DNA from: Iphione sp. A-MEVVRFRX5
Lineage: Eukaryota
DNA length: 64,000 nt
Direction: 5' to 3'
NCBI GenBank assembly: GCA_976226885.1
Contig: OZ320314.1
Span: forward strand, 116,498,001-116,562,000
The notes below the pieces were generated by a model. The model saw only the letters and a list, made by a program, of their open reading frames with translations, ran no database searches and was not told where the DNA came from. The position numbers and the translations under genes were made by a program. Below, one piece after another: positions 7,600 to 51,534 of this stretch (position 1 is its first letter; the number at the start of each line of letters is the position of its first letter).

Positions 7600-10500
7600 T
7601 CAGGCACTCATTAGGTGGACAATGTACACATATTAAAGGGCCCCTTACTGATATTCAACATGCTTAATATCTCGTATTGATGGGTTCCCATAAATAACAC
7701 AGGAGACATCATTTCCTAAGATGAATAACAACCTTATCCTTTGATAGAGACACATCCCTTCGCAAGATACCACCCAATCCTCTGAACTGCCTCTTACGAA
7801 ACAAACATCTAAAACCTAACAAGACAGCACACCATCTCAGGATATCTTGAATACCATTGAAGTTGAGTGCCTAATAAAGTTTCATCAAATCCTCCAATGA
7901 CAAACCTTAAGAAACCATAGACGAATCATTATAAATACTCTTCAACCCATTAATCATCCATTTGATATTAGAGTCTTAGACGTGGTGGATCTAAAAATCT
8001 CCATTTATGCTCAAATACCAAACCACTTAAATAATTAGCCACTGACAATGGACACATCCTCAAGGACAAATATGCACAATATAACCTAAACTGACTCTGG
8101 CTGCAAGAAAAGGGAACAAAATTATACTCCTTACAAAAGCCCAAATAAACAATTTGCTACCTCCTCCTTGTCTTGAGAAAATTCCTTGAATATGCTTCAC
8201 TCCTCAAAGAAGACATCCTATTCTTCAATTTTTGCACCAGATCTAAAACAAAATAACACCTCCTTACAGCAAGTGACTTAAACCCACTGCAACCACCTAT
8301 TATCATCGCTTTTGAACTTATCATCCCTTCTAGACAAGGTGTCTACAATTACGTTATCCTTGGTGCTCAGATATTCTGATGATATTCTGATATTATAAAC
8401 AACACAAATCCAGAAAATCTCTTTCAACCACCACATGCAAATCCTATTCGAGCTTCTACCGGTCCTGAGCATATGGAGTACCTGGGTATTATCAACCGTT
8501 AATAATGCATGAGTTCTTCTCCATTTACCATACCACCGCTTCAATGACACAACAACTGGCCACAACTCATAGACATTGATGTTCTTGACAACACTCTCAT
8601 CACTTGGAGGCTTTTCTATATGACCACAACCAAATCCCACACAGTCCCCTTCCCATGAGCCTAAAAACAAGTCATTCTCAATGTAGCCAGCAAATCCTTT
8701 AAAAGAGGCATCAGTATAACAAACAAAATCTGTATCCCTTGGACTGAAAATCTTCCAACACTATTAAATAACTTTGAAAACGGAAGCCACCATTTCAAAT
8801 CCTCCAGGACTATACAACTGATCACCGTCTTCCTATTATTCCTTGCCTATGTTTTAACAAAGTCATAGAGACTTCTGCAAAAGGTCATACCACCTAAGAT
8901 AATAGTAGACCAGTGAGAAAGGAAACCTGCAATTTTCTCCCCTTCCTTCCTACACATCTCTTTTTCAACAACCTCAGACAACATAGTACACATTTTCTCT
9001 AATCTACCATCCGGTAATCCGAGATACATGTCAGCACTGTCTTTTTCGATCCCTAAGAACAGCCAAACCTGATTTGGATCGGTTACTTTCCTCCAGGAAA
9101 CCTCAAGACCTAAAGATATAAGTGTTTCCACCGGTAAGTCTCTCTTTCTCACACATGAATCATAGCAATCGCCCTTCACGAAAAGATCCTCAAAATAGTT
9201 CACCACACAGCCATAAGAGCGGAAACAATACTACTGCACTATGAAATTTGAAATTTGAGTGAAAATATACGGTGCACATTTAAGTCCAAAGGTTAAGGTG
9301 TTATTCACAAAGAATTTCCCATCTCCATCAAGGACCCAACTAAAGCCCTGGAACTTCCTACAATTCTCTGCCAAACTAACCAATCTATGAGCGTTGCTTA
9401 TGTCCACAACTGACATGTAATCCCCACACTACAAAAATTTACAAACATCATTGACTGATTTATATGAGGAGGACTCAAATAACCCATCCATAAAACTATT
9501 GATGGAAGAACCTCTTGGCATCAAACAGTCCGTGATCGGACGTAGCAAACCATCACTCTTTTGGACTCCTCCCATGGCATGTACACATTGTGGGATATCA
9601 TCCGCCAAGCTGATAATACCTAAGGCCTGTTCCTATCTGATTTTCTCAGTCATCTCCGACCAAACGGGCTCACTTTCAATTGACTTATAATTCCTACAGT
9701 AGTAACTTCCATCAAACTCACTGTTAACTATCTTGAAACCATCACAAACACCACTCCATATAAACTTCCTGCAAGAAACATCCATTGAGCCAAAACAACA
9801 GCCCCTAAAAAACCTGCACGGCAACAGTTTACTTTCAACACCACCTATCAAATGAGAACAGTCACAACAATTTCCTAAACATGACTTCATGATCCTAATC
9901 ACCTTTGAACCATTAAATACCACATACATCAGCCCATCACTGTGGTATGATACTCTACCAGCTGGAGGAGAGAACCTGCAAAATCCAAAAGCATCCAATC
10001 CTCTTTGTCTGAACCTGACCCCATGCGAAAACTTAATGAATTCCCTATCCCCCCCAGCAGCTCAACACCATCGGGCCTGAAAAAGAAGGGTTCATCACGC
10101 CCCCCCCCCCCTAAATCTGGGAAGGAGAAAACATTGCCATAACATGGCTTATCCTGAACAGACACAATATCATTTGTACATAGTCATTTCTTTACCCCCT
10201 TTCCATCCTTACTCTTCTCAAAATTGTTTACATTGGATGGACATTCGAAAGCTCTATGCTCGGAATTAGCACAAACTAAACATGCATGCTTAAAAACACA
10301 GCTGCTATCATGGTAAGTGCCATTGTTGATTCTGTAACAAACTTTATCAGACTTTCGAGAAAAATCAGCATGGCGATGAATTTTCTGTTTGGAGTTTGAA
10401 CCACGCCCACTATTGATCATGATGATCATTATAAAACGGGAAATGGCTTCTGATAAAATCATCGTCACCAAATTTAACCTCACTCAAGCCTTTGTTCTCT

Positions 10501-15087: not shown

Positions 15088-15167
15088 GTGGTTAGGGTCA
15101 GGGTTAGGGTTAGGGATAGGGTTAGGGTTAGGGTTAGGGTTAGTGCTAGGGTTAGGGTTAGGATTAG
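15088..15167 (+). repeat. Interstitial (TTAGGG)n-like tract inside an inverted-repeat element (about 14975-15240)
   Basis: About 12 degenerate GGGTTA units; flanking arms GTTTATATGGCCAG / CTGGCCATAAAC are near-complementary. Confidence 0.75.
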
Positions 15168-17041
15168 CCATATTTACAGAAAAATACTGGCCATAAACGA
15201 CCATTGGCGGCCATACAGATCATTGGCCATTAAGACGGACGGCCTTTGCAACCATCATTCCCCATAGTCGTGGTATGTGACTGAGCCTGTTTCACAATAT
15301 CAACTCTCCATGCAGAGGCTCAGCAATTTAACATTGAGGAGCATACTCATTAAAAGATGGGAGGAAGAAGTCGCCCTCCTAGATTGAACACGAGGGAAGC
15401 AAAACCCTATCAACCAGCCAAGCGTGGAATCACCCGGTAACAACATCATTTACGTAGAATTGTCCCAATTAAACAACAGTTGCAGGAGGAGATGGAGATA
15501 ATGCATTTCCAGGAGCATCAATCTTGAGCGTAATGAATTGGGTGCTTTAAGGCAGAGTGAGGGACTGGAGTCTGAAGGGCAGAGAAAGACTCCCAGCCCG
15601 CCCGCCCAGCCCGCCGAGCCGATCCCCCCGACCTTAAATAAGGAACAAAGGGGAACGATTAACTGTCCACTGGTAAGGTTTCATTCACCGAGCTGAGAAT
15701 AACGAGGAAGAGGACAGGTAATCGCTCAGGGAAGGCATTATTAAAGGGAAATATAAGGAAACTCGAACTGGGGCAGCATGATGAAAATTCTAATGACCAA
15801 AACCTGATGGTGAATCGTTCACCAAAGCTGAAGCAATTCAACAATGGTAGCCGTGCGATAAGCATGGACAAAGGAGAAGTCCTGGAATCTGAAAAAGATA
15901 GATCCAAACGTTAGAGTCTGATAATTAGCATGATTTGAATGAAACACGTCGTGAATCTCCTCCAATTAACGGGAAAATTTGAGGTTTTTTGGTGTAACGT
16001 TGTTGAATTTCAGTACAATCTGTAAACATTTTAGTTTCCGATGGACAGTTGTTAAATTCCAACTTATATAAAATGTGAGTTCTTTATTCAAATTAAATGC
16101 AAATTCGGTAGACTTTTAACATGGTGCAAACACAAACAGGCACCTTTCCTCACAGATTTAGGTGTGTTCCTGTGTATTTCTCACACCTTTGGGTGTTCAA
16201 ATAGGTGATGTGCCACGTGTGACTACATTTAATAATTCCTTGAGCATTTTCTCACAATTCTCACAACCTATGGCGACTTTTGTCACGCCTTCTACTTGTG
16301 TGAGTAGATCCTAGTAATTCTTAACCCTTTCCTCTTCCCTTCATCACACTGTTTTCCTCGGATTTCCTGGATAGTACAGTGTAATTCCAGATTTGTACGA
16401 GTTCGACTGCTGGTGCAATGTAAGAATCGTACAGACTTATAGAAAACTTCTGGAGCTTGCAGCACCATCTTAAAATCATGCAAATTCTGAAACTTAACCT
16501 GTACAAAATCTTTGCAATTCCCCCAATGGTTGCACAATCAAGGAATCTATGAAAAGGAGACAATTTAGCTGTTTGCATCTAACATACAACTGTATGACAT
16601 GGAGCTATTCAAATTTTGTACGAGTCCTGAGTATATAAGCGGTTGGGCACAGGTTTAACATTGAACACAGGTTTAACAATGGTCTTCTTTTCATGAGAAG
16701 GTTTCTTCGCCATCAGGTAAGAATCGACACATCAGCTGGAGGTGCTTTTGGAATGTAATGGTCCCCTTCAGAGGGGAAAAAAATATTACGCCAGGAATTT
16801 TAAGACGGCATCAGTACGATGCCTGATGCATAGTTCACGTCTTTCATCTGTACGTAGCTCGTGTTCCATTCGTGGCTGTAACAGCACCAAAATGCCAATG
16901 CAGGATAAAACGATGTCTCTCATAGCAACGCATATTTATGCATTTCCACTCTCAGAAAGTATCTAGATAACCAGCATGTGTCAGCCGAAGGTATTACTCT
17001 GGAAAGCATACGTAACCGGTATGCTTTATACCTGTTTATAT

Positions 17042-17729
17042 TGTAATTCGGTTAACTCTTCCACTTGGTGTAATCCAACTAAACGCTAGCTCCCTTAGTT
17101 ACTCCACTGTAATTCCAGTGAGGCTATGTCCAGTTACTAACTCCAGGATAATTCCCCTGTTGAAATTCCCACTTGGTGAATCCAACTATTGTTAAGTGTT
17201 ATCCTGTCCCAGTTACTTCACTGTAGTCCCAGTGCGGTTACATCCAAGTGCCAACCCTGGGTAATCCAAGTGGGTTTGATATATCCCCAATCAACAAGGT
17301 CCACTAGTGAGTTCCAAGTGCAAACTGTTTTATTGGCCACACAGGGCCCATATTTATAGTCAAACTCCTGGTCATGTGATCCATACAATGTATTATTCAT
17401 GGAATAAAACTGTTACAACATGTGGTGTGTGCCTTACTCTCTACCAATCATCTCAGAGCAATCAGATACAAAGTTACAGATGCCTGGGCATCCAGGGCTC
17501 AGGGCCATACAACTTGCCTGTGGTGCCACAGGCCATGACCATTTTTCTAAATTACTACGACATAGTTACCCTGGCTGGCTGTGGTGCCGCAGCCGAGATC
17601 GTTTCTAGAGTTCACCAAGTACAGTACATGTATCTACTACTGTATACGACTGCAGTGCCACAGTCGACGTTAATTCCAGAGTTCACCAAGTACAGTACAA
17701 GTGGCTGTGGTGCCACAGACAACATTACA
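17042..17729 (-). repeat. 3' LTR
   Basis: TG...CA termini. Matches 27189-27876 except two substitutions found by eye (GTGAGTT/GTGAATT and TATTATT/TATCATT). Confidence 0.97.
17329..17358 (-). promoter_or_regulatory. LTR TATA box (TATAAATA, 17358-17351) and poly(A) signal (AATAAA, 17334-17329); equivalents in the 5' LTR at 27505-27498 and 27481-27476
   Basis: Motifs read on the - strand and positioned as expected for a U3/R boundary. Function inferred. Confidence 0.7.
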
Positions 17730-17742
17730 CTCTCCCCACCTT
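17730..17742 (-). other. Polypurine tract
   Basis: AAGGTGGGGAGAG on the - strand, abutting the TG of the 3' LTR. Confidence 0.9.
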
Positions 17743-17759
17743 AAAACAGTCCGCCGGGG

Positions 17760-18480
17760 GAAGTGCAAACCGGTTATCCTGGGAGGCACAACCTGAGCTA
17801 GCATAACTCTTCCTAGGGAGGTTAACAGTTGTCCTAACAATTCTTGGATAACTACTGGTAACTCTGGCAAAGCCTCCATAGGAGGTGATGATCATTAATA
17901 ACACTCCCAACAATTCTTGGATAACAACTAGTAACTCTGGAAAAGTCTCCATAGGAGGTAATGATCGATACTCACTAGTCATCAACGGTAACAGTCTGGA
18001 ATATGCACATACATACAGGAACAGTCTGGGATAAATGCTTACTCTGGTAAAGCCTCCTTAGGAGGTAGTGATCAATATTCACTGGTCATCAACGGTAACA
18101 GTCTGGAATATGCACGTACATACAGGAACACCCCCCTTTTAGTAATCGATTATCTGGAATGTATGCTGAATCTGGTAAAGTCTCCATGGGAGATAAAGAT
18201 GTAGTCATCACTTCTAATAAGACAAACCTGAACCCCGTTTTTTTTTTTTTTTTTGTGGGGTACAGTCCCCTCCAGTCATTACTTTGATAACACTCCACGG
18301 CCCCATAGGGGGTAACATTTGGCAAGTAACATGGGTAACAATCATCACAGATCAACATCACATTATAGCAAAACATTATAAATACTCCACCTGAGGCAGA
18401 GAACCTGAGTGTATAACCTTTTTTTTTGTGGGGTACAGTCCCCTTCAGTCACTTCCCACAACTCTCCAAACCTTAGTATC
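17760..18480. repeat. Degenerate tandem repeats in the element's 3' non-coding region
   Basis: ACTCTGG(C/A/T)AAAG(C/T)CTCCATAGGAGGT-type unit about 4 times; GTCATCAACGGTAACAGTCTGGAATATGCAC twice; TTTTTTGTGGGGTACAGTCCCC twice. Confidence 0.8.
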
Positions 18481-18650
18481 TCAGGTAACAATTACGAACA
18501 GTAAGGTTTTTATGGGGGGTAGGGTCCCCTTCTCTACCCTTTTCTTTGTAACACCCTTGTTTAACGAACCCCCCCCGACAGCTAGACTAAAGAAACCTCC
18601 AAAGGAGGTAGTCACATGCGGTGGCACAGCCTCCAGGCTTGGACGGGACC

Positions 18651-20021
18651 TTACTCCCCGTCCTTCCTCTCCTTCTCCGCTGCAGGGTGCGGTCGGCCCT
18701 CCGCCCCCTTGAGGCAGCGTCTCCACACTTCTTGTGTCCCCAGCAACAGTTGCCTGGGGGCCGAATGACGACAGACGTCATACAAGGTAGGGGACTGCTG
18801 GTCCTGCTGCATCTGCGCGTCGTCTCTTTCACGTAACCACCGAACTGCGTCGGTGGCCCTAGGGCCCCTATCTTGTCCTCCCTCCCTCTGGAGATCCTTA
18901 ATGAGGTTTTCTGCGACAGTAACGGTGTGATTGTTCCGGGCGAGTATATCGTCTACGTTTCCCCAGTCCTGCGGCTGAGGGAGTGCCATCCCGGGCAGGA
19001 GAAGGGCTGGCCTCTGTCGCAGTGGTTCCAACACAGTAGGGGGGAGTGCCCCACCTCCTTCCGCTAACTGGAGCACCCAGGCCAAAGATAATGATGTCAT
19101 CAACCGCTGGACCGGAGAGAGTGCGTCCCAGCGCGGGGGAGGCCAGGTGATGACAGGTGGTAGACGGACCGGGCCTGGCACGAGTTGGCTCCGCATAGTG
19201 GCCACATGGGGAGGGAAGAGGCCAGAGAGGATGTCCTGCACGCGTCCGGTCACATGTGGTCGCCGCCGCGGCGACAGGGTATAGGCGGCCAGCCGGGCCA
19301 GATGGCCCTCCCCCAGGAGTGAAAGCTCGTCTCGGACGCCAGCGGGCCAGGCTTTCCCTTGAGTTGGCACCCGCGATGGCGTACAGGCCGTGCCGGACCC
19401 AGGAGTGGCCGGCCGTCGTTCCTCAGGTGTTGCCGCAACCTCTCCAATCGCCGGTTCCACGGCGGGGGCCTCACAAGGTGGGGAAACCGGTGCCGCCTGT
19501 GTGGAGGAGGCAGCCCCCGACCCCTCCCCAACGGGGCCCCCGATCCTGCACTGACGGGGCAGTGGCGGGGGGTTCGCCCGTTGCGGGCATTCGGCCAACA
19601 TGTGCTCCACATCTTGTTGAGTCAGCACCCATCCCTCCTCTCGGGCCCGGCGGGCACGCATAAGAATAGTGGTCAGTTCGTCATCTGGGGCAGCGACGAT
19701 CCGAGGCCCCCCACTCACTACATCGTGGAGACATCGGTAAGGTTTTTCGGTCAAACCGAAGTCAACGGCCCAGGGGTGGTAGCGTCGCTGGTGGGTAACC
19801 CAGTAGTGTTCATCGTTTATCACCACCGAACACCAAAGGCACATAATATCACGGCCCCGCCCCCCTTCATGCTTATCATGTACATGACGATCATATGAAT
19901 CTTGATTCTTGAATGGACGTGGTACAACACACCTGGTACAGATCTTGGCCTCTGGGGTAAGCTGTAAGTCTGGTGTCAGCTTACTGGGCCACCGTTTTCC
20001 ACCTACCTTCTTGCGCGGCAT
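18651..20021 (-). CDS. Accessory ORF3 of the retrotransposon: C2H2 zinc-finger protein (456 aa from ATG 20021; frame open from 20051)
   Basis: Uninterrupted ORF, ATG in ACAATG context, basic N-terminus PRKKVGGKR. Finger 1 is C-x2-C-x14-H-x4-H (CTRC..F..Y..HVHDKH). Finger 2 is C-x2-C-x12-H-x4-H (CLWC..HQRRYH). A TEKPYRC linker-like segment follows. Confidence 0.8.
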   Translation of the reverse strand: MPRKKVGGKRWPSKLTPDLQLTPEAKICTRCVVPRPFKNQDSYDRHVHDKHEGGRGRDIMCLWCSVVINDEHYWVTHQRRYHPWAVDFGLTEKPYRCLHDVVSGGPRIVAAPDDELTTILMRARRAREEGWVLTQQDVEHMLAECPQRANPPPLPRQCRIGGPVGEGSGAASSTQAAPVSPPCEAPAVEPAIGEVAATPEERRPATPGSGTACTPSRVPTQGKAWPAGVRDELSLLGEGHLARLAAYTLSPRRRPHVTGRVQDILSGLFPPHVATMRSQLVPGPVRLPPVITWPPPRWDALSPVQRLMTSLSLAWVLQLAEGGGALPPTVLEPLRQRPALLLPGMALPQPQDWGNVDDILARNNHTVTVAENLIKDLQREGGQDRGPRATDAVRWLRERDDAQMQQDQQSPTLYDVCRHSAPRQLLLGTQEVWRRCLKGAEGRPHPAAEKERKDGE

Positions 20022-20059
20022 TGTCGGCGCTCGGTGGCTGCGGAACCACAAGCGTCTCG

Positions 20060-20190
20060 GATGCCCTCCACTCGATGCAGCTGTGGGTCCGCAGTCAGTT
20101 TATTCACCTTGTGTGTGTCCTCCTTCTGATACCCTCCACTCGGTACAGCTGTGGGTCCGCAGTCAGTTTATTCAACTTGTATGCGTCCTC
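20060..20190. repeat. 68-bp tandem duplication, each unit carrying the palindrome and a minus-strand AATAAA
   Basis: GAT(G/A)CCCTCCACTCG..CAGCTGTGGGTCCGCAGTCAGTTTATTCA at 20060 and 20128. Confidence 0.9.
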
Positions 20191-20358
20191 TACTCCCTGT
20201 GGCACCACAGCCGCCGAGCTAGCGTCGACGCTTCTGTGGTGCGGTTCCCTTCGCCTTCTTTGCCCTGGTCGTTGTTCTTACTGGTCCAGAAGGTCCAGCT
20301 TCATGTCCTCCTCTTCTTCTCCCACGCTTCCGAGCTGGAGAGCCTTATTTTGCAGTAA

Positions 20359-20730
20359 ATTATAGCAATTTAAATGCCCCAAGCCGAAATCTTCCCTAGA
20401 ATTTTGAGCCCTGGATCGAAAACGAGGCTGGGCGGAAGTTTACGTTTGGCTGCGGTTCCGCAGTCACTGTTTTTTTTCTTTTCTACCGCTGTGGGGCCAC
20501 AGGGTGGAATTTAATGCCTTTCTTTACAAAGTCGGGACCTTTTAAGCTGTTTCCGCAAATTTTCATCAGATTTTGGCAGTCAACGGACTTTCGGCGATGG
20601 GTGCCTGTGGGGCCACAGCCGCTCGGCGTACTGCGTAGTTCGGTTCCCCTCTCTTGCCTGTGGCGCCACAGTCGCTTTCCCGCTCGCGCTGCCTATAAGT
20701 ACCCTCGTTATCCAGGTCTCGGCGTTAGTT
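20359..20730. promoter_or_regulatory. Putative divergent internal promoter
   Basis: Minus-strand TATAAT (20364-20359); plus-strand TATAAG (20694-20699) with Inr-like TTAGTT at 20725-20730; four CTGYGG-NN-CCRCAG palindromes between them. Confidence 0.55.
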
Positions 20731-20758
20731 CTCCAACTGACTTCATAGGATCCACACC

Positions 20759-21022
20759 ATGGAAGGCAGCTACCATCTACCCAGTTGGCTCATGGCCTAT
20801 CCTCCTACTGTGAACCAGTAAGTTCCCTATTGTCTCCAGCTTCAGTCATTTTGTATTTGATGGTTCTGAAATTCAGTTTGTTGTTGTTAGGGTTCTGTTC
20901 AACCTTTCTCTTCATAGGTTAAGATCAGACTCTGGTGGGTGAAGCACCCCTTCATCTCCAGCCTGTGTGTCCTCCTTGCTGCCATTCAGATGGTTAGAAG
21001 GTGAGTGTCCTTGGGTGATTTA

Positions 21023-21055
<33 letters not shown>

Positions 21056-21892
21056 GTTTTGCAGGTACGCCGATTTCTTTTACCTGTGCCTCTTGGTTTT
21101 GCAGGTACGCCGATTTCTTTTACCTGTGCCTCTTGGTTTTGCAGGTACGCCGTCCCTGATGCGTACTACCGACACGTAGACGTCACCACCCCAGGGCCCT
21201 CTTTACGCGTGTACGGTCTCTACAATGTCTTGGACACGCCGCTGTACATCGCGTCGCCTGGCTATGTCCGCCTCTTTGGCCCGGATCACGTTCTGGACGT
21301 GGTGGTCCATCCTGCGGGGCCGTCGGAGCCGCCTCTTCCCACCATACACGATCCATGGTGGTGTGTCGATCGGAATGAGGCTGTCTCCCCTGACCTGGGG
21401 CTTCGGGACGTGGAAGAGACACTGGCGTCTCTCACTCCGGATCCGAGCTACACCAGTCTGGCCACCTCGTCCGCCGCTTCCTGGGCCGACTGCAGTCCTT
21501 CGGCCCCTCATGATGTTCCAGCCTGGGCCCTAGGCATAGACGATCGTGCCTCCCTCTCCTCCACCGACAGCTACGCGGGCACCGACGGGACCGCCTCGAC
21601 GCTGACGTCCAGCCGTCTCGACCCTTGGGGGTCCGACCAGGACCTCAGCGACCTGTTCTCGCCGCTGCCGTCGGCTCCTCCTTCCCCTTCCCTGTCGCTG
21701 GACTCTCCACCATGGTTCCCGGCTTCTCCCTCCTCCTCCGGCACCACTTCCATCAATGACACTCCCGACAGGGGGACCCCCCTACTAGGTCGGGCCCTGC
21801 TGGAGGAGATGCCAACTGACATTCTTTGCCAATGCTACCCAGGCCTCTGCCGGGGGGACTGCGCGTCCTTCCCGATCGTGCTGTCCGACTAA
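20759..21892 (+). CDS. Antisense spliced accessory gene (predicted exons 20759-20817, 20962-21000, 21145-21892; 281 aa), unknown function
   Basis: Donors CCA/GTAAGT (20818) and AAG/GTGAGT (21001); acceptors CTTCATCTCCAG (20961) and GGTTTTGCAG (21144). The joined exons give 846 nt in one frame ending at TAA 21892, followed by AATAAA at 21961. The last exon is better supported than exons 1-2. Confidence 0.62.
21055..21152 (+). repeat. 40-bp tandem repeat that triplicates a splice acceptor, preceded by T30
   Basis: GGTTTTGCAG/GTACGCCG with AG at 21063-64, 21103-04 and 21143-44; T-run 21025-21054. Confidence 0.9.
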
Positions 21893-21960
21893 ACGTCCGA
21901 CTATATGTGTAAATATTGTGAATATGTAAATAGATCCCGTCGCAGCATTAAGGGTTGTTA

Positions 21961-21966
21961 AATAAA
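21961..21966 (+). terminator. Poly(A) signal of the antisense gene
   Basis: AATAAA 69 nt after the stop codon, in an AT-rich island within a GC-rich region. Confidence 0.65.
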
Positions 21967-22714
21967 TTTCAGTTACCTGTTAGTCGTCTCCCTGTGGTTT
22001 TCCTTTCCGTACAGTTCTTAAGTCTTTCTCCCTCTTAAAGGTGTCCAAAGGCAGCCTCTGCTTCCCCTCGACCGGTCTACTAGAGGAAATGGACCGCAAC
22101 TGGGCCCCTCCAGAGGAAAGTGGACCGCATCTTGGCCGTGCAACCACTCCCCTTCGTCCAGAGGACAAGGACAGCATCTTGGGTAAAGTAACCCTGTCCT
22201 ACTTGTGGTCTCACCGTCTCCCGTCCGTCAATCCGTACCGAACCGTTTCGAGCTCCGCCGTCTCCGGGACGTTCACTCCCTACCCGCTTCATAAACGTTT
22301 CGCGTGCTCCAAGGTGTTCATCCTCCCTCCGCAGGCCTTTCGTGCATCTCCAGGAGGTCCGTCCTCCTACCTGGACTTTCTGGGCCGGGTCAAACCCCAG
22401 GATGTCCATCCTCCTCCAGGGAATTTCGGATGCGAAATACGCTTTCGGGCGTTCCCTTTTCGCCCCACGGACTTTTCGAGCGCTACCAGGGGGCCTCCCC
22501 TCTTCACAGGTCGTTTCAAGCCGATGGCTTCCGGGTCGCCTGTCGCACCCATAGTGGCCATTTCGAGCCCTTCCGGCTCCGGGCGGGCCGTCGCCCTCCA
22601 TGAACCTTTTCGAGCATCGCCAGGACGTTTATCATCCTACCTTCCGACTCGCTATTCCTTCCGAGTCTGCGGGACACTGGGTCCCAGCGGGCTTCCTCGC
22701 CCCCCATCTCCTTA

Positions 22715-25700
22715 TCAGGCCTTTCGGGAAGAGGTCTCGCCCCTCGCGGGAGGGACGGGGGCCTCGCTTTTCCTGCGCCAGGAGATGATCCACCGGGGTA
22801 ATTGATCCCCCCGGTACGGCCGTAGACGGTTCCTATGTATGACTTTCGGCCTTGCCTGCTTCGAGCGTTGTACCACCATTCGCTCATCGTCCAGGGCCCG
22901 TATGACTAGCCACGGTCCCGACCAAGGGAAATGGGTTTTGGGACTCTTTCCTTTCGGGGGTTGGGCTTCATGGAGCCATACCGCCGCCCCTGCCTCCAAG
23001 GCGTCTCCCCTCACCCTCCGATCGTATGCCCGGGCCTGGGCTCGGGCCGCCGTGCCCAGCTTCTCCCGGACTCTACTGTACGCTGCTTGGAGACGCCGAA
23101 CCATTCCTCCCACGGGATCAGGTAAGTCCTCCGTAGTAGGAGTCTTTTGAGGGAGACCATCCACCGCATGCACTGGAAGGGTTATCTCCCGCCCGAACAT
23201 GAGGTAGTTCGGAGTGTAACCAGTGCTAGCCTGGGGTGAAGCGCGGTAAGCCATCATCAGGAAAGGAAGTGCGGTGTCCCACTCATCCCGACTCTCAAAG
23301 CAGTGTGCCTTGATCATTTTTCCAAGTGTGCGAAAACTTCGTTCAATGAAACCGTCGCTCTGTGGATGGCGGGGGGTGGTTCTGGTCTTCTTAATGTCAA
23401 GGTAGTCGCAGAGAGCTGTGATGATCTCGCTGCAGAAGTTAGTTCCTTGGTCGCTGTGTAGTTCGTGGAAGCAGCCATAACGGGCGATTACCTCTTCCGC
23501 CAAAATCCGAGCAACCTGAGGAGCCTTTTGGTCTGGTAGCGGGAATGCCTCAAGCCACTTGGTGAAATGGTCGCCCACCATCAAGATATAGCGGTTCCCT
23601 CGTTCAGTCAGCGGCAGAGGTCCCGCCACATCCATGGACCATCGCTCCATGGGCTCCCCTGGCAAATAAGATTTGAGTGGCACTTGGGGACGGAGTGGGT
23701 TCTGGTTCAGCAGGGCGCAGTGACAGCTCTTGCACCAAGTTGCGATGTCTTCTCTCATCCCTGGCCAATAGTAAGCCAACGATACCAGGTAAGTGGTTCG
23801 CTCGGCGGCCAGGTGCGCCCCGGTTTGCCCCGCGTGTACTTCCTTGAAGGCCTTTTCGCGGAGTACGGCTGGTAGGACCACCTGCAGTCGAGAGGGGTCC
23901 CCCCCAAGGCCAGTCCATCTGCGTTGCAGAAGACCATCCGTCAAGGTGAGTCGGCTCCACTGTCGCCAGAGGCTCTTAGTCACAGCTGACAATGGGGCCA
24001 CCCACTCCCAGGGGGGTTGTTGAGGGTCCAGTTCCAGGGCTTTAAGGATCGGCCCCACACACTCGTCCTGGAGTTGAGCCGTTCTCAGTTCTGGATGTTG
24101 GGTCCCCACCGCCTGGCTGCGGGTTACCACCCTCACCTTCTGGGTTACCCCCTCTTCAAGAAGGTGTTCCTGTTTACACTGCCGACAGGGTTGGCGGGAG
24201 AGGGCATCCGCATTGGCATTCAGTCGGCCAGCTCGGTGCTCCAAGTGAACATTGTACTGCCCTACCCGTTCCAGCCAGCGTGCCAGTTGCCCCTCCGGAT
24301 CCTTGATCCGACGGAGCCAGCTTACGGCTCCGTTATCAGTACGCACAGTGACTTCTTGTCCATACAGGTAGAAGTGGAAATGTTTCAGGGCCGCTACCAC
24401 CGCGAGCAGCTCCCTACGCATCACACAATACCGCCGCTCAGGTTCGCTCAGACTGCGGCTATAGTATGCCAGTACTACCTCTCGTCCCTCCTGCCATTGG
24501 GCGAGCACGGCCCCCAGCCCCACATTGCTGGCATCCGTGTCTAGGAAGTAGCGTCCCTCAGGTCGTGGGTACCCCAGGATCGGGCTGGTAGCGAGGGCTG
24601 ACTTTAGCTCCTGAAAGGCCTTTTCTTCCGGCTTTCCCCATGTGAACGGTGTCTTGGCACTGGTTAGCTGGTTCAGAGGGGCTGCCACATTCGCAAAGTG
24701 TGGTACGTAACGCCGGTAATACGAACAGAGGCCTAAGAAGGCGCGCACCTCTGTCGTGCAGGTTGGAGTTGGCCATTCCTCAATGTCCTTCGTCTTGCTG
24801 GGATCTGTAGCCACCCCTTTAGGCGAGACGATATGTCCTAAAAAACCTATTTCTTGCAGGAACAGCTGACATTTTGACGGTTTCAGCTTCAGTCCTGCCG
24901 CCGAGAGCCGCGTCAACACCCGATCCAAGCGGGCCAGGGTTTTCTGGAAGGTCCTTCCGAACACCAGTATGTCATCGAGGTACACTAGACATTGTTCCCA
25001 CGTCAAGCCACGTAACACTGTGTCCATCAGGCGCTCGAACGTTGCTGGTGCATTGATCAACCCAAATGGCATGACGGTAAACTCGTATAGTCCTATGGAC
25101 ATGGAGAATGCCGTCTTCTCCCGATCTTCTGGGTGCATTTGAACCTGCCAGTATCCGGATGCCAAATCCAGGGAGCAGAAATATTTAGCTCCCGACAAGG
25201 TACTCAATGAGTCATCGATCCTTGGTAGTGGGTAGGCGTCAACCTTCGTCTTCTCATTTAATTTCCTATAGTCGACGCAGAACCGAGTGGTCCCATCTTT
25301 CTTTCTCACCATCACTACCGGGCTAGACCACGGGCTGCTACTCTCGACAATCACTCCCTGGTTTTTCATTTCATTCACCAGCTTCCGTTCCTCTTGTCTT
25401 TTTGCGAAGGGCATGCGCCGTGGGGGCTGCTTGATAGGATGTGGATCTTCGGTGTAAATGCGATGTTGTACTACATCTGTGCACCCTAGGTCACCCCGGT
25501 CCCGGGCAAAGGCCAGACTGTGTTTCCTGAGCAACCGCCTCAAACGTCCCTGCTGGTCCGGGGTAAGGGTCTTCGTGGTGGACCCCACCAACTCCTGTAT
25601 CACGTCAGCCACTGCCCTTCTTATGGCACACACACTCTTCTGAGGAGTCACTGACGTTTCATCCCAGGGACGGGCGGGGACCCCCACAGCCACCTGGGTT

Positions 25701-26344
25701 CCCTGTTTCAGGAATATTTCCAATTCGGTCGTGTTCCACATGGGCAGGGTGGCTTCCACCAGGCATCTCATTCCTATCACCCCGTTATTCCACTGTGAAT
25801 CCAGCAGCCCTTCAATCATCAGGGGTGCCCCCCCATTGTGGTTCACTAGCACAGCAACCCCCTCCCCAGGTGGCAGAGTCACATCGTGAGCCACTCGGAT
25901 CTCCACCTCCCGTTTCACCACCCGGCGGCATCTAGGGACGTCATTTTTCAGGGCTATCTCTTGTTTGGCTAGATCGATCACCGCCTTATGCTGGCACAGG
26001 AAGTCACTACCTAGGATGCCATCTTCTTCTACTTCAGCCACTAGGAAATGGTGTGGAAAACTCTTGCCCGCTATTTCTAATTTGCAGGTGCGGTGTCCCA
26101 AAGTAGGGATAACATGCCCTCCCGCCCCAGTGATACACGTCAGTGAACCCCTCTCCTCCAGGCCAGGGACCACACGGGGGTTAACAATGGATACCTCGAC
26201 ACCAGTATCAATCAACAGTTCTAACAATCTTCCATCAAGGCTTACCTTCAGTCGTGGTCCCTGACCTGGTTCCATTGTAGTCCCCGTTAAAGCTATCCCA
26301 GTCGTACCATCCTGGCCTAATTGGTCGACTGAGATCCGTTTCCC
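22715..26344 (-). CDS. pol: Pol polyprotein (protease, RT, RNase H, integrase with GPY/F-type C-terminus), expressed by -1 frameshift
   Basis: LIDTG protease; VVMVRKKDGTTRFCVDYRKLN and YLDD RT; DTDASNVGLGAVL RNase H; integrase H..H/C..C, DVAGPL, SDQG, GFIER and WSGPW. The frame is open from the slippery site to the stop. No chromodomain seen. Confidence 0.97.
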   Translation of the reverse strand, partial: GKRISVDQLGQDGTTGIALTGTTMEPGQGPRLKVSLDGRLLELLIDTGVEVSIVNPRVVPGLEERGSLTCITGAGGHVIPTLGHRTCKLEIAGKSFPHHFLVAEVEEDGILGSDFLCQHKAVIDLAKQEIALKNDVPRCRRVVKREVEIRVAHDVTLPPGEGVAVLVNHNGGAPLMIEGLLDSQWNNGVIGMRCLVEATLPMWNTTELEIFLKQGTQVAVGVPARPWDETSVTPQKSVCAIRRAVADVIQELVGSTTKTLTPDQQGRLRRLLRKHSLAFARDRGDLGCTDVVQHRIYTEDPHPIKQPPRRMPFAKRQEERKLVNEMKNQGVIVESSSPWSSPVVMVRKKDGTTRFCVDYRKLNEKTKVDAYPLPRIDDSLSTLSGAKYFCSLDLASGYWQVQMHPEDREKTAFSMSIGLYEFTVMPFGLINAPATFERLMDTVLRGLTWEQCLVYLDDILVFGRTFQKTLARLDRVLTRLSAAGLKLKPSKCQLFLQEIGFLGHIVSPKGVATDPSKTKDIEEWPTPTCTTEVRAFLGLCSYYRRYVPHFANVAAPLNQLTSAKTPFTWGKPEEKAFQELKSALATSPILGYPRPEGRYFLDTDASNVGLGAVLAQWQEGREVVLAYYSRSLSEPERRYCVMRRELLAVVAALKHFHFYLYGQEVTVRTDNGAVSWLRRIKDPEGQLARWLERVGQYNVHLEHRAGRLNANADALSRQPCRQCKQEHLLEEGVTQKVRVVTRSQAVGTQHPELRTAQLQDECVGPILKALELDPQQPPWEWVAPLSAVTKSLWRQWSRLTLTDGLLQRRWTGLGGDPSRLQVVLPAVLREKAFKEVHAGQTGAHLAAERTTYLVSLAYYWPGMREDIATWCKSCHCALLNQNPLRPQVPLKSYLPGEPMERWSMDVAGPLPLTERGNRYILMVGDHFTKWLEAFPLPDQKAPQVARILAEEVIARYGCFHELHSDQGTNFCSEIITALCDYLDIKKTRTTPRHPQSDGFIERSFRTLGKMIKAHCFESRDEWDTALPFLMMAYRASPQASTGYTPNYLMFGREITLPVHAVDGLPQKTPTTEDLPDPVGGMVRRLQAAYSRVREKLGTAARAQARAYDRRVRGDALEAGAAVWLHEAQPPKGKSPKTHFPWSGPWLVIRALDDERMVVQRSKQARPKVIHRNRLRPYRGDQLPRWIISWRRKSEAPVPPARGETSSRKA
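26292..26344 (-). other. -1 ribosomal frameshift signal (GGGAAAC plus downstream stem-loop)
   Basis: G GGA AAC at 26344-26338 near the end of gag; a -1 slip enters the pol frame. Hairpin CAGTCG-ACCA...TGGT-A-CGACTG starts 6 nt downstream. Confidence 0.85.
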
Positions 26345-27156
26345 TGTAACTCAGGGCAATCACGCCGGAAATGGCCCTCTTGTCCACATTGGAAACATTT
26401 AGTGTAGCGCGGCCTCTTGTTCCTTGCTTCCTCTCGAGCTTGCATCTCTTCTCGGATCTTGGCAAGTTCCTTAGTGAGCTCTTCCATAGGCTTCGTCCAC
26501 GCTGGGGTCGGCGGGGCCTGTACCACCTGTACCCTCTTAGCAACGAATCGTTCCTGAGTCTCCACCACCTGTACTGCCGCGTCCAACGTCGTGCACTTCG
26601 CCTCCAGGCATTTGAGGTGGAGGGAGTCGACCAACGATCGCTGAAAGGCAGCCACGGCGGCCAGTTCCCGAGTCTCCCCGGACACGTCGGGGTAGGCACT
26701 CCTTACCAGACGCCTCACCCTGTCAGCCAGGTCCCGGACATCCTCGTCCTTCTGCCTGCGGATGCTAGAGAGCTTCTGCATGGCCACCACCCGGTCGCGT
26801 CGCCTGCCAAAACGTCGTTCAAGCGCCGTCACACGGGATCCATAATCCCGCTTGTCCTCCGGTGGTAAATCTCCATAATACATACGCGCTGGGCCGGTGA
26901 GCGAAAGCGTCAGGGCAGAACAGCGGGTGTTCTCACTCCACTTGCAAGCGTCCGCCCACTCTGTGAACTGTCCTATCCAACTGTCCCAATCCACAGTCTT
27001 CCCATCGAAGCGTTCAGGCTTCATGGCGTTCATCTTTAAGGGTTCCTCCGGGGCTAGTTCAAACTGCTCACCTTCTTCTTCCTCCTCGCCCGCATGTGCT
27101 GGGCTGGGAACCCGAATTTGCACTTCCTCATCCACTGCCACGTACTGAGTTGCCAT
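26317..27156 (-). CDS. gag: Gag (279 aa)
   Basis: KPERFDG..W..F capsid-like start; CFQCGQEGHFRRDC CCHC zinc knuckle; begins 13 nt after the PBS. Confidence 0.95.
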   Translation of the reverse strand: MATQYVAVDEEVQIRVPSPAHAGEEEEEGEQFELAPEEPLKMNAMKPERFDGKTVDWDSWIGQFTEWADACKWSENTRCSALTLSLTGPARMYYGDLPPEDKRDYGSRVTALERRFGRRRDRVVAMQKLSSIRRQKDEDVRDLADRVRRLVRSAYPDVSGETRELAAVAAFQRSLVDSLHLKCLEAKCTTLDAAVQVVETQERFVAKRVQVVQAPPTPAWTKPMEELTKELAKIREEMQAREEARNKRPRYTKCFQCGQEGHFRRDCPELQGNGSQSTN

Positions 27157-27169
27157 CTTGCTGTTGAGG

Positions 27170-27187
27170 ATCCCACCGCTGCCACCA
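27170..27187 (-). other. Primer-binding site complementary to tRNA-Leu
   Basis: TGGTGGCAGCGGTGGGAT, 1 nt inside the 5' LTR, complementary to the 3' end ...AUCCCACCGCUGCCA-CCA known from metazoan tRNA-Leu(AAG). Confidence 0.88.
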
Positions 27188-27188
27188 G

Positions 27189-27876
27189 TGTAATTCGGTT
27201 AACTCTTCCACTTGGTGTAATCCAACTAAACGCTAGCTCCCTTAGTTACTCCACTGTAATTCCAGTGAGGCTATGTCCAGTTACTAACTCCAGGATAATT
27301 CCCCTGTTGAAATTCCCACTTGGTGAATCCAACTATTGTTAAGTGTTATCCTGTCCCAGTTACTTCACTGTAGTCCCAGTGCGGTTACATCCAAGTGCCA
27401 ACCCTGGGTAATCCAAGTGGGTTTGATATATCCCCAATCAACAAGGTCCACTAGTGAATTCCAAGTGCAAACTGTTTTATTGGCCACACAGGGCCCATAT
27501 TTATAGTCAAACTCCTGGTCATGTGATCCATACAATGTATCATTCATGGAATAAAACTGTTACAACATGTGGTGTGTGCCTTACTCTCTACCAATCATCT
27601 CAGAGCAATCAGATACAAAGTTACAGATGCCTGGGCATCCAGGGCTCAGGGCCATACAACTTGCCTGTGGTGCCACAGGCCATGACCATTTTTCTAAATT
27701 ACTACGACATAGTTACCCTGGCTGGCTGTGGTGCCGCAGCCGAGATCGTTTCTAGAGTTCACCAAGTACAGTACATGTATCTACTACTGTATACGACTGC
27801 AGTGCCACAGTCGACGTTAATTCCAGAGTTCACCAAGTACAGTACAAGTGGCTGTGGTGCCACAGACAACATTACA
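27189..27876 (-). repeat. 5' LTR
   Basis: See 3' LTR; adjacent to the PBS. Confidence 0.97.
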
Positions 27877-27904: not shown

Positions 27905-28100
27905 AGTATAAGCCCCCCCCCCCCCCAAAAAAATAGGTGTGTTTCTAGTAACCCACCCCTACCTAGTAAAATCTCACCCTACCTAAAAACATTTTGGCCC
28001 CAAAGAGTTTCCAAGGATGAATTTCTTTAGATATGTGTTTTTACTGCAATTTTTTTTGTAAATTCAGTAGAAAAACAACAAAACTCATACAGATTGGTCA
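27905..28100 (-). mobile_element. Partial MITE of the GGCC..AAAAAATAGGTGTGTTTC(T/C)GGTAAC family
   Basis: Reverse-complement similarity to copies at 48690-49050 and 51191-51534. Confidence 0.7.
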
Positions 28101-41211: not shown

Positions 41212-42178
41212 TTCTAAGTTGAAAGGTGGGAGAAGGGTATTACTGTTCCAGGTGATAAATATGCCAGCACATAATGTAACAACAGTAGTTGAAAACGCCC
41301 TGTTCACCTAAAAATGTATGATTTCATAACTTATTTCTAGGCAGCACAAGTAAGTTATGAACAGGAATTGGTTCCCAGTTTTTAGTCAATGGCGTGTAAT
41401 CATTCAGGTCCACATAATATTACCTCACAGATACACGAGGTCACCTAAGGTCACTATACGTTCCTCACCGAAAGGGTTATGCTATCACTAAGCTTACCAC
41501 TAAAATAAACTCTATGTTCTAAATAGGATAAAGAACAAGGGGCTTAATTTCTGCATGTTTGATACTTCATAATACGATACGATAGAATGTCTTGGCACTG
41601 TTCGCAGTACATGTATATTATCCAAGTTATCATCTCTAGACGCTTCAGAGGACAAGTAGAAGTAGATATAGTAGAGAGGACAAGTAGTTCGAAGTTGATG
41701 CAGTTTTGCCTCTGGATCTCGGAATCACGGAGAGGAAATCCCCGACTGACGTCAAAACTCCGAGGTCGGGCTAGCCTCTCCAGGGAAGGCGGAGGGGGGG
41801 GGGGAGAGACCAAAGCATAAACACAGAGCAAGAAAGTGGGTCGCAGGGGGGCTGCCTGGCGGGCTACGAGCCATATATAGAGCGCCAGAAGAATTTTCGT
41901 GGGCCGTGGGTCAGAACGTCGGCGTGTGGGCGAAGGCGTACGCTAGCATGTGGCCTGATTTCTCCCGCTGAAGCTGCCTCTGCTGCCCCTGCTGCTGCTC
42001 ATCACTTTGAACAGTGGAGGACGGTGCAGTTGTGTGGAGAGAGAAAGAAAGAACTCGGCTGCTCTTCGCGTTTATTTAATCCCGAGGAGATCAATACTAC
42101 GAGTGCTACCAACACTGGGCACCATTTGGACGGAATCGACCTGTGTAGTATTCCTCGTCCTCAGCCGCCGCCGCCATC

Positions 42179-42440
42179 ATGAAGATCGGGCTCACCGTGC
42201 TGCTGTGTTTGGTCATTGTGCTGGTGATCGCTTCCATCCTCTGTCATGTCGTCGCTCTAGCCACGGACTACTGGCTCAAGTCGAGCTCGTCTGGCCAGAC
42301 GGACTTTCTCAACCTCGGCCTGTTCGTCGCCTGCTTCCACGAGTACGTGCACCCGCACGACAACCCACCTCGGACCTACGATGGCTGCCACTATCTCGAA
42401 TCCAACTACTACTCGACCATCAGGGACTGGCTGGTTCCAG
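42179..42440 (+). CDS. Claudin-like (PMP22/EMP/MP20/claudin superfamily; Sinuous/Kune/Megatrachea-like) coding exon 1
   Basis: MKIGLTVLLCLVIVLVIASILCHVVALATDYW..NLGLFVAC..YDGCHY..IRDWLVP. TM1, the W-LGL-C signature and the second loop Cys are present; donor G/GTAGGC. Confidence 0.9.
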
Positions 42441-48689: not shown

Positions 48690-49050
48690 GATAAACCCCC
48701 CCCAAAAAAAAGAAGATAAGTGTCTTTCTGGTTACAGCCAACCAAAAGCCTAGGTAGGGAGGGTGGGGGTATCTTTTTTTAAAAGTTTGTTTTCACTTTC
48801 TTCCTCTGGTTTTCAATAATAATAAAGACCATATAAAGAATTTTGACCATTTTGCACAAGTTTTACAGTTTTTCGTTGAATTTCCATGGACTTAGTTGTT
48901 TTTCTACTGAATTTACAAAAAATATGTGCTGTGAAAAATGCAGCCTTGGTAACACTTTGGGGCCAATAAATGTTTAGGTAGGGTGAGGATTTACTAGGTA
49001 TGGGTGGTTGACCAGAAACATACCTTTTTTTGGGGGGTGGGGGGGGGGGG
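48690..49050 (+). mobile_element. MITE, same family as 51191-51534
   Basis: Collinear internal similarity (TTCCTCTGGTTTTCAATAATAATAAAG..TAGGTAGGGTGAGG..ACCAGAAACA). Confidence 0.75.
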
Positions 49051-51190: not shown

Positions 51191-51534
51191 GGCCCCCAAA
51201 AAATAGTTGCGCTTCTGGTAACGACCAACCAAGAACCTAGGTAGGGAGGGGGGTATTTTTTTTTTTTTAATTTTTTTTTCCACATTGTTCCTCTGGTTTT
51301 CAATAATAATAAAGGCAATATGAAGAAGTTTGACCAATTTGCATGAGTTTTACAGTTTTTTTATGCATTTTCATGGATTTTGTTTTTTACTGAATTTACC
51401 AAAAATATGTATCATGAAAACACATATCTAAGGAAATTCAGCCTTGAAACTCTTTGGGGCTAAAAACTTTTAGGTAGGGTGAGGTTTTACGTGGTAGAGG
51501 TGGGTTACCAGAAACACACCTATTTTTTTGGGCC
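51191..51534 (+). mobile_element. MITE with GGCC termini and 3-bp TSD (TTG); Zator- or Harbinger-like
   Basis: GGCCCCCAAAAAATAG..TTCTGGTAAC / GTTACCAGAA..CTATTTTTTTGGGCC. End relics (AGGCC..TTTCCAGTAAC) also near 12820, 32595, 39045 and 50165. Confidence 0.7.

Follow-up and report, generated by a model that had tools for sequence, protein, structure and literature searches.

Retrotransposons with long terminal repeats (LTRs) and no env gene are usually regarded as reliant on host transcription factors. In foamy viruses, by contrast, the viral protein Tas binds elements in both an internal promoter and the LTR, forming a feedback loop (PMC13220597, PMC517496), and a regulatory role has been proposed, though not proven, for accessory open reading frames (ORFs) in gypsy elements (PMC7264820, PMC11963269). 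Here we describe a 64,000-nucleotide stretch of Iphione sp. A-MEVVRFRX5 (assembly GCA_976226885.1, contig OZ320314.1, positions 116,498,001 to 116,562,000; hereafter the window), which contains a young, intact-looking Ty3/gypsy LTR retrotransposon on the minus strand (17042-27876). Its LTRs, and the spacer between two extra genes that lie back to back between pol and the 3' LTR (ORF3 in sense, ORF4 in antisense), carry repeated copies of one palindrome: a genuine and well-delimited cis-element, in a recent retrotransposon whose two-gene accessory region is unusual. We give a probability of about 0.5 to the reading that this palindrome is bound by a regulator that the element encodes, the likeliest being a pair of two-finger ORF3 proteins. 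The arrangement suggests that the element may make its own transcriptional on-switch, as some complex retroviruses do.

The palindrome core, CTGYGG-NN-CCRCAG (CTGYGGNNCCRCAG), has 13 exact matches across the window, against 0.00 expected from 100 shuffles, and 16 when one mismatch is allowed (0.22 expected, shuffle maximum 3). All 16 lie within the one element. The 53 kb of flanking DNA holds none, which bears out a sequence-only reading of this DNA that had noticed no copies outside the element, and none falls in the coding DNA of gag, pol, ORF3 or ORF4, every copy being in non-coding regulatory DNA. That reading had given 15 positions, and the motif is present at all of them. It rightly called 17650 a one-mismatch copy; 27797, which it listed without a mismatch, also has one, and a third such copy, at 20038, can be added. 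The copies form four groups:

27662 to 27868: four palindromes in the 5' U3, cores at 27665, 27726, 27797 (one mismatch) and 27852
17515 to 17721: four palindromes in the 3' U3, cores at 17518, 17579, 17650 (one mismatch) and 17705
20035 to 20213: cluster next to ORF3, cores at 20038 (one mismatch), 20081, its tandem copy 20149, and 20197
20447 to 20674: cluster between two TATA-like boxes, cores at 20450, 20489, 20605 and 20658

The 5' LTR copies had been placed upstream of the LTR TATA, and they do lie 166-354 nt upstream of it (27505, minus strand). The eight internal copies are spread over the 0.7-kb spacer that separates ORF3 from the antisense gene, starting 17 nt from the ORF3 ATG (core 20038) and ending 23 nt from the antisense-gene TATA. 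As the two LTRs are 99.7% identical, their palindromes were counted once. Additionally, 20081 and 20149 represent a 68-nt tandem duplication, and 17579 and 17650 lie within a 71-nt duplication; thus, about ten palindromes are independent. Order 1-3 Markov models fitted to the LTR and intergenic DNA predict 0.001-0.011 copies (at most 1 in 1000 runs), whereas 10 were observed. In the LTRs (17042-17729) the CpG observed/expected ratio is 0.29, in the internal spacer 0.89, and the T/C variation of the palindrome and its single G-to-A change fall on CpG.

Alignment of the 24 half-sites (20 after removal of duplicates) extended the site symmetrically to YGNCTGYGG-NN-CCRCAGNCR, 20 bp with a 9-bp half-site, and so larger than first noted. 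Position -2 is G in 19 of 24 half-sites (p 2.7e-8; 16 of 20 without duplicates) and position -3 a pyrimidine in 22 of 24 (p 1.8e-5; 18 of 20), whereas position -1 and the spacer are free. The TGYGG core is present in 23 of 24 half-sites, with T commoner than C at the degenerate position, and has C before it in 23 of 24; six of the 24 read TGYGGT and two TGYGGTY. A profile of the extended site gives the 16 copies 21.7-29.7 bits and the next best sequence at most 11.3, figures that are optimistic, being obtained on the training sites. Orientation and spacing are strict: every pair of 6-bp halves (13 pairs, spacers 0-12) and every pair of TGYGG cores (14 of 14, spacers 0-15) is inverted with a spacer of 2, and no other spacer or orientation was found in these ranges. 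The flanks of most internal copies are unrelated to each other. On RNA, stem pairs would be broken in 3 of 12 sites read from the minus strand and in 2 of 12 read from the plus strand, and there is no Rfam match; we rejected an RNA hairpin, which is unlikely because pairs are broken on both strands.

Fixed orientation and spacing, symmetric extension, broken stem pairs and unrelated internal flanks thus make it well supported that the palindrome acts as a double-stranded DNA site for a twofold-symmetric binder, under selection. In this the sequence-only reading, which had inferred a dimeric site from fixed half-sites with a varying spacer and varying flanks, survives in modified form. The spacer does vary among the internal copies, but is TG in all four LTR copies; the flanks are constrained at -2 and -3; and its exclusion of tandem duplication goes too far, two pairs of copies being duplications and the LTR copies sharing one spacer.

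The accessory region that surrounds the internal copies contains the following features:

18651 to 20021, minus strand: ORF3, 456 amino acids, basic at the N-terminus, then two C2H2-type fingers (from 19940), a linker-like TEKPYRC stretch, a middle rich in Pro and Ala, and a helical C-terminus
20359 to 20364, minus strand: weak TATA-like TATAAT facing ORF3, a putative promoter (alternatively, ORF3 would be spliced from the LTR transcript)
20694 to 20730, plus strand: TATA (TATAAG) of the antisense gene with an initiator-like TTAGTT
20759 to 21966, plus strand: ORF4, a predicted spliced antisense gene, with ATG 20759, donor 20818, optional exon 20918-21000, stop 21892 and AATAAA 21961

The two ORF3 fingers (C-x2-C-x14-H-x4-H and C-x2-C-x12-H-x4-H) show the ligand spacing and hydrophobic core of C2H2 fingers. 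The finger region scores below the Pfam cut-off (E 0.1 for zf-C2H2_4, and 1.6), and a language-model (Atlas) search with ORF3 returned small C2H2-like proteins at 0.92-0.95, including zf-C2H2 clusters. AlphaFold without an alignment gave low-confidence models (pLDDT 39, 51) with a strand-helix finger 1 and a finger 2 without helix, and a fold search with the low-confidence model was empty. Sequence searches recovered no homologue of full or near length, none for residues 1-170 among 1.84 billion representatives and none among PDB sequences. A spliced third finger after TEKPYRC, sought by eye in the sequence, was not found. No strong splice acceptor was found upstream of ORF3, and its expression would therefore come either from its own promoter or through splicing of the LTR transcript.

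ORF4 starts at an ATG in strong context. Its acceptor is present three times, and only splicing to 21145 would preserve the frame, the first two leading to early stops. The three acceptors, in three frames, stem from 2.5 copies of a 40-nt unit behind a 30-nt run of T (21025-21152), and the last alone is predicted to be productive. The sequence-only reading makes no mention of this gene. The predicted protein, of 268 amino acids, is acidic and Ser/Pro-rich with hydrophobic patches, and neither a homologue, a Pfam domain nor an Atlas look-alike was found for it. TATA, splice and poly(A) signals lead us to infer that the spacer is a promoter in both directions; the clearest of these signals face ORF4, where we take TTAGTT to match the initiator consensus. 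Four palindromes lie between the TATAAT box (20364) and the start of ORF3, and four between TATAAT and the antisense TATA.

If ORF3 is the palindrome binder, as this layout leads us to infer, a simple circuit can be proposed. Basal activity would yield some ORF3 protein, which would bind the internal palindromes and change expression of both ORF3 itself and the antisense gene; binding to the four U3 palindromes would turn on the genomic gag-pol RNA. The four palindromes closest to the ORF3 start, on its upstream side, could hold ORF3 in check when it becomes abundant, and the acidic, Ser/Pro-rich antisense protein could act as co-activator or antagonist.

Such a circuit would follow the logic of the foamy-virus internal-promoter/LTR loop with unrelated parts. 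As in foamy viruses, accessory genes lie between the coding region and the 3' LTR, and the same element recurs in U3 and in what the TATA, splice and poly(A) signals mark as an internal promoter of those genes. Unlike the Tas/Bel1 system (PMC13220597, PMC517496), this locus is an env-less Ty3/gypsy element with a C2H2 candidate for which no similarity to known proteins was found, many near-identical palindromes, and a second accessory gene that is antisense rather than a splice variant; neither ORF3 nor ORF4 gave a family or homologue match to suggest Tas homology, and pol is gypsy and not spumavirus. VANC proteins of Arabidopsis VANDAL elements likewise bind a short private motif in the non-coding DNA of their own element, protein and motif diverging between families, and our palindrome too has accumulated in the non-coding DNA of the element that would encode its binder. 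VANC motifs, however, measure 8-9 bp, lack palindromic symmetry and have spread through tandem repeats; they belong to a plant DNA transposon and serve to counter DNA methylation (PMC5735166).

Other described systems share fewer parts. Plant Retand and Grande elements have a long region from pol to the 3' LTR and an antisense ORF with its own promoter, for which regulation is again proposed and unproven; they belong to a plant lineage, carry a TRP28 domain and no sense zinc-finger ORF, and the available text describes no site shared by LTR and internal region (PMC11963269, PMC7264820). In bdelloid rotifers, an animal group, LTR retrotransposons carry non-env third ORFs that are spliced and patchy across lineages, but the types are env, GDSL, DEDDy, coiled-coil and transmembrane, and the word 'zinc' does not occur in the text (PMC5408684). 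The Spm TnpA and Mu transposase proteins are sequence-specific activators of cognate copies, as proposed here, but are transposase-derived regulators of DNA transposons (10.64898/2026.08.24.746577). Term look-up in the available portions of PMC6238403, PMC5408684 and PMC13524379 found no zinc-finger ORF. The accessible literature that we searched, with few subscription papers and no repeat databases, yielded no account of any animal gypsy element whose third ORF is of C2H2 type, nor of one whose LTR and internal region share a palindrome.

A search with Pol of the contigs of bacterial genomes found 41 loci with gypsy-like pol, of which 39 were analysed (L001 and L002 were left out). Not one of the 39 carries the palindrome, in keeping with a site confined to the present element. 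Microsatellites in several of these bacterial records, which are long contigs, suggest that the assemblies contain eukaryotic DNA. In the 412,251 nt of loci and window, read in six frames, the tandem two-finger pattern occurs four times, always in sense behind gypsy pol: in the present element and in three others:

L010, 5144 to 5686, sense: two-finger C2H2 ORF behind pol
L011, 6045 to 6236, sense: two-finger C2H2 ORF behind pol
L012, 3259 to 4016, sense: two-finger C2H2 ORF behind pol

The finger ORFs of L011 and L012 begin directly after acceptor-like sequence. The 3' LTR of L010 (5766-6531) is complete, contains a strong donor at 6125 and is followed by a second element. Because MAFFT misregistered finger 2, fingers were compared by ligand spacing; L011 finger 1 has the same unusual spacing as ORF3 finger 1, with 8 of 25 residues identical. 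Searching with a finger profile made from four sequences brought back two of those four and three unnamed proteins.

Predictions from a simple zinc-finger recognition code, for which Table 1 and the text of PMC1920264 support three assignments (Arg6 to G, RSDNLTR to GAG, RSDSLTR to GTG), were compared with each element's own non-coding DNA. In L011, whose second helix is RADNLRR, the predicted GAGGY occurs 6 times against 2.3 expected (p 0.033), with three of the six clustered at the start of the LTR. In L012 the predicted CNGGAY occurs 4 times against 0.7 (p 0.004), or 3 against 0.65 with one tandem unit removed (p 0.027). Two of its copies form part of a 6+2+6 near-palindrome, whose outer CTG/CAG is that of the window palindrome. 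No non-cognate pairing of word and element reached p<0.1 (0 of 12), and control regions reached p<=0.035 in 1 of 63 and 0 of 63 cases. Of the dyad arrays sought in 15 non-coding regions of other elements, only two stood clearly above shuffles: the tandem pair of L012 and an AT-rich dyad in four copies behind L003. That three other gypsy elements have a two-finger ORF in the same place, with code-predicted words in two of them, adds some weight to ORF3 as the candidate binder, the one also named by the sequence-only reading.

Several points count against that assignment. The recognition code fails to predict the palindrome from the ORF3 fingers: the pair scores 34 against 28.8 (p 0.15) and ranks 27th of 64 finger pairs against the site profile. 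On the other side, finger 1 alone (Arg6, Ser3, Asp2) fits the GYGG core best, though it carries little information. The finger 2 helix is aromatic and lacks Arg. Two fingers usually span 6-7 bp, compared with the 9-bp half-site here, and no dimerisation domain was identified in ORF3. Arrays of this kind are absent from the relatives with two-finger ORFs. Those three relatives, out of 17 loci that extend 400 nt or more beyond pol, all come from one assembly. Homology of ORF3 to these three is not demonstrated, because a profile of their finger pairs scores ORF3 at E 0.33 only. Quick trees, with search hits as the only rows, put the four elements into one supported group of 25 rows without joining them on a single branch (AU p 0.12), so that a single origin is neither demonstrated nor rejected. 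The code table was fixed after the L011 and L012 repeats had been seen; the L011 word ranks 67th of 1024 words of its shape; and L010 has no palindrome array and a predicted word at p 0.61, although its LTR and intergenic region are complete. Speculatively, the failed code prediction could be reconciled with binding if finger 2 had turned into a pairing surface, leaving finger 1 and the basic arms to read DNA. To the same side of the balance belongs the TGYGG core itself, which, with its RUNX-like T/C degeneracy, is exactly the core bound by RUNX (PMC2952845).

Host RUNX/CBF, raised as an alternative by the sequence-only reading, could accordingly recognize the cores singly or in pairs, and RUNX1 does bind a palindromic core pair, in the GM-CSF enhancer, and tolerates C after the core. 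There, however, the inverted cores of the demonstrated dimer are 4 bp apart without a conserved outer YGNC, and a palindrome with 3-bp spacing bound one RUNX only (PMC2952845). All 14 pairs here are 2 bp apart and none 3 or 4, T, which RUNX prefers after the core, follows it in 6 of 24 half-sites, both halves cannot be ideal RUNX sites at spacing 2, and the C before the core and YG at -3/-2 are foreign to RUNX. Binding as a monomer would not select palindromes. The alternative thus keeps its core and is weakened by spacing and outer positions: we regard RUNX as the selecting factor as decidedly unlikely, while single halves could still be bound by it. A different dimeric host factor, with sites gathered in U3 and the internal promoter for one tissue or stage and ORF3 doing something else, is less easily set aside, if still unlikely. 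Arrays of host-factor sites are the ordinary case in LTRs, as with the Su(Hw) sites of Drosophila gypsy; the site is not what the ORF3 fingers predict, the array is missing from relatives with fingers, and the host DNA examined amounts to only 53 kb. Those 53 kb nonetheless contain no full site, the roughly 21.7 bits of the motif (an overestimate, given few sites) are high for a host factor, and we know of no animal factor with this consensus.

Within the element, the antisense ORF4 protein, alone or with ORF3, might be the binder, as a Tas-like acidic activator of its own promoter and the LTR. The clearest internal promoter does face ORF4, with a palindrome close to its TATA, and the protein resembles Tas in being acidic with hydrophobic patches (PMC517496). 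We nonetheless think this improbable: the 248-residue main exon has only 10 basic residues, no domain or look-alike was found, and the splice model is a prediction in which the first two acceptors lead to early stops. Still more improbable, in our judgement, is that the palindromes are RNA stem-loops, signals for replication or packaging, or neutral remnants of local duplication. The two duplicated pairs and the single LTR spacer would fit such an origin. Against it, pairs are broken on both strands, position -1 varies without pairing while -2 and -3 are conserved, the 5' U3 lies outside the genomic transcript, the flanks of most sites are unrelated, and Rfam gives no match.

Returning to the ORF3 pair as the regulator, we tentatively extend it to a wider proposal, about which we are more doubtful than confident: animal Ty3/gypsy elements may include a group of 'complex' elements, each with its own fast-evolving two-finger C2H2 factor behind pol and a private word per family. 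In the present element this would have been elaborated into a zinc-finger regulator and an antisense acidic partner, driven by one bidirectional internal promoter and wired to the LTR by a 20-bp operator-like palindrome. If so, a Tas-like autoregulatory circuit evolved independently outside Retroviridae, and such elements might be a mobile source of new zinc-finger/site pairs for their hosts. With a candidate regulator and an extended, well-delimited candidate site together in one recent copy, the question is readily testable, and the three additional two-finger ORFs hint at a family whose finger residues could be set against its sites to look for co-evolution. Even with a host binder, a strict 20-bp dimeric motif and a predicted spliced antisense gene would remain.

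The remaining parts of the element are those of an intact-looking Ty3/gypsy retrotransposon, flanked on both sides by the target-site duplication ATAT:

27189 to 27876, minus strand: 5' LTR, 688 bp, TGTAAT...ATTACA, with CCAAT-like boxes, TATA 27505 and AATAAA 27481
27170 to 27187, minus strand: primer-binding site adjoining the 5' LTR, presumably of tRNA-Leu type
26317 to 27156, minus strand: gag, with a CCHC knuckle
22715 to 26350, minus strand: pol (PR-RT-RNase H-IN), in a different frame from gag, whose end it overlaps
17730 to 17742, minus strand: polypurine tract adjoining the 3' LTR
17042 to 17729, minus strand: 3' LTR, with 2 differences from the 5' LTR (99.7% identity)

The RT-RNase H region is at most 62% identical to animal gypsy Pol proteins. 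Neither ORF3 nor ORF4 matched an env family and the low-confidence model has a soluble layout, which sets the element apart from errantiviruses and retroviruses. A strong splice-donor-like sequence lies early in gag (27071, minus strand, phase 1), with no matching acceptor identified. Behind pol, nine CGAAA words occur on the minus strand at 22250-22612, where gag-pol has 0.9 per kb; they may be another repeated signal or form RNA tetraloops. Short CAC...GTG dyads, which may be RNA hairpins, are repeated in R/U5 of both LTRs (17105-17320 and 27252-27467), and between ORF3 and the 3' LTR degenerate 73/107-nt repeats and a 33-nt repeat follow T runs (17832-18130 and 18246-18537).

Two further gypsy loci from the Pol search have long frames behind pol: a 714-residue third ORF without family match in L021 (13943-16087) and a chromodomain-bearing frame in L033 (6201-8405). 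Elsewhere in the window, a dispersed repeat family is present in both orientations (27913-28082, 48726-49045 and 51200-51532), one copy starting 37 nt from the 5' LTR. An exon of a PMP-22/claudin-family host gene at 42149-42409 (plus strand) is consistent with an animal host. A remnant at 8278-8760 (minus strand) has a weak retroelement RNase H match (E 0.14), and an interstitial TTAGGG-type tract occupies 15090-15179.

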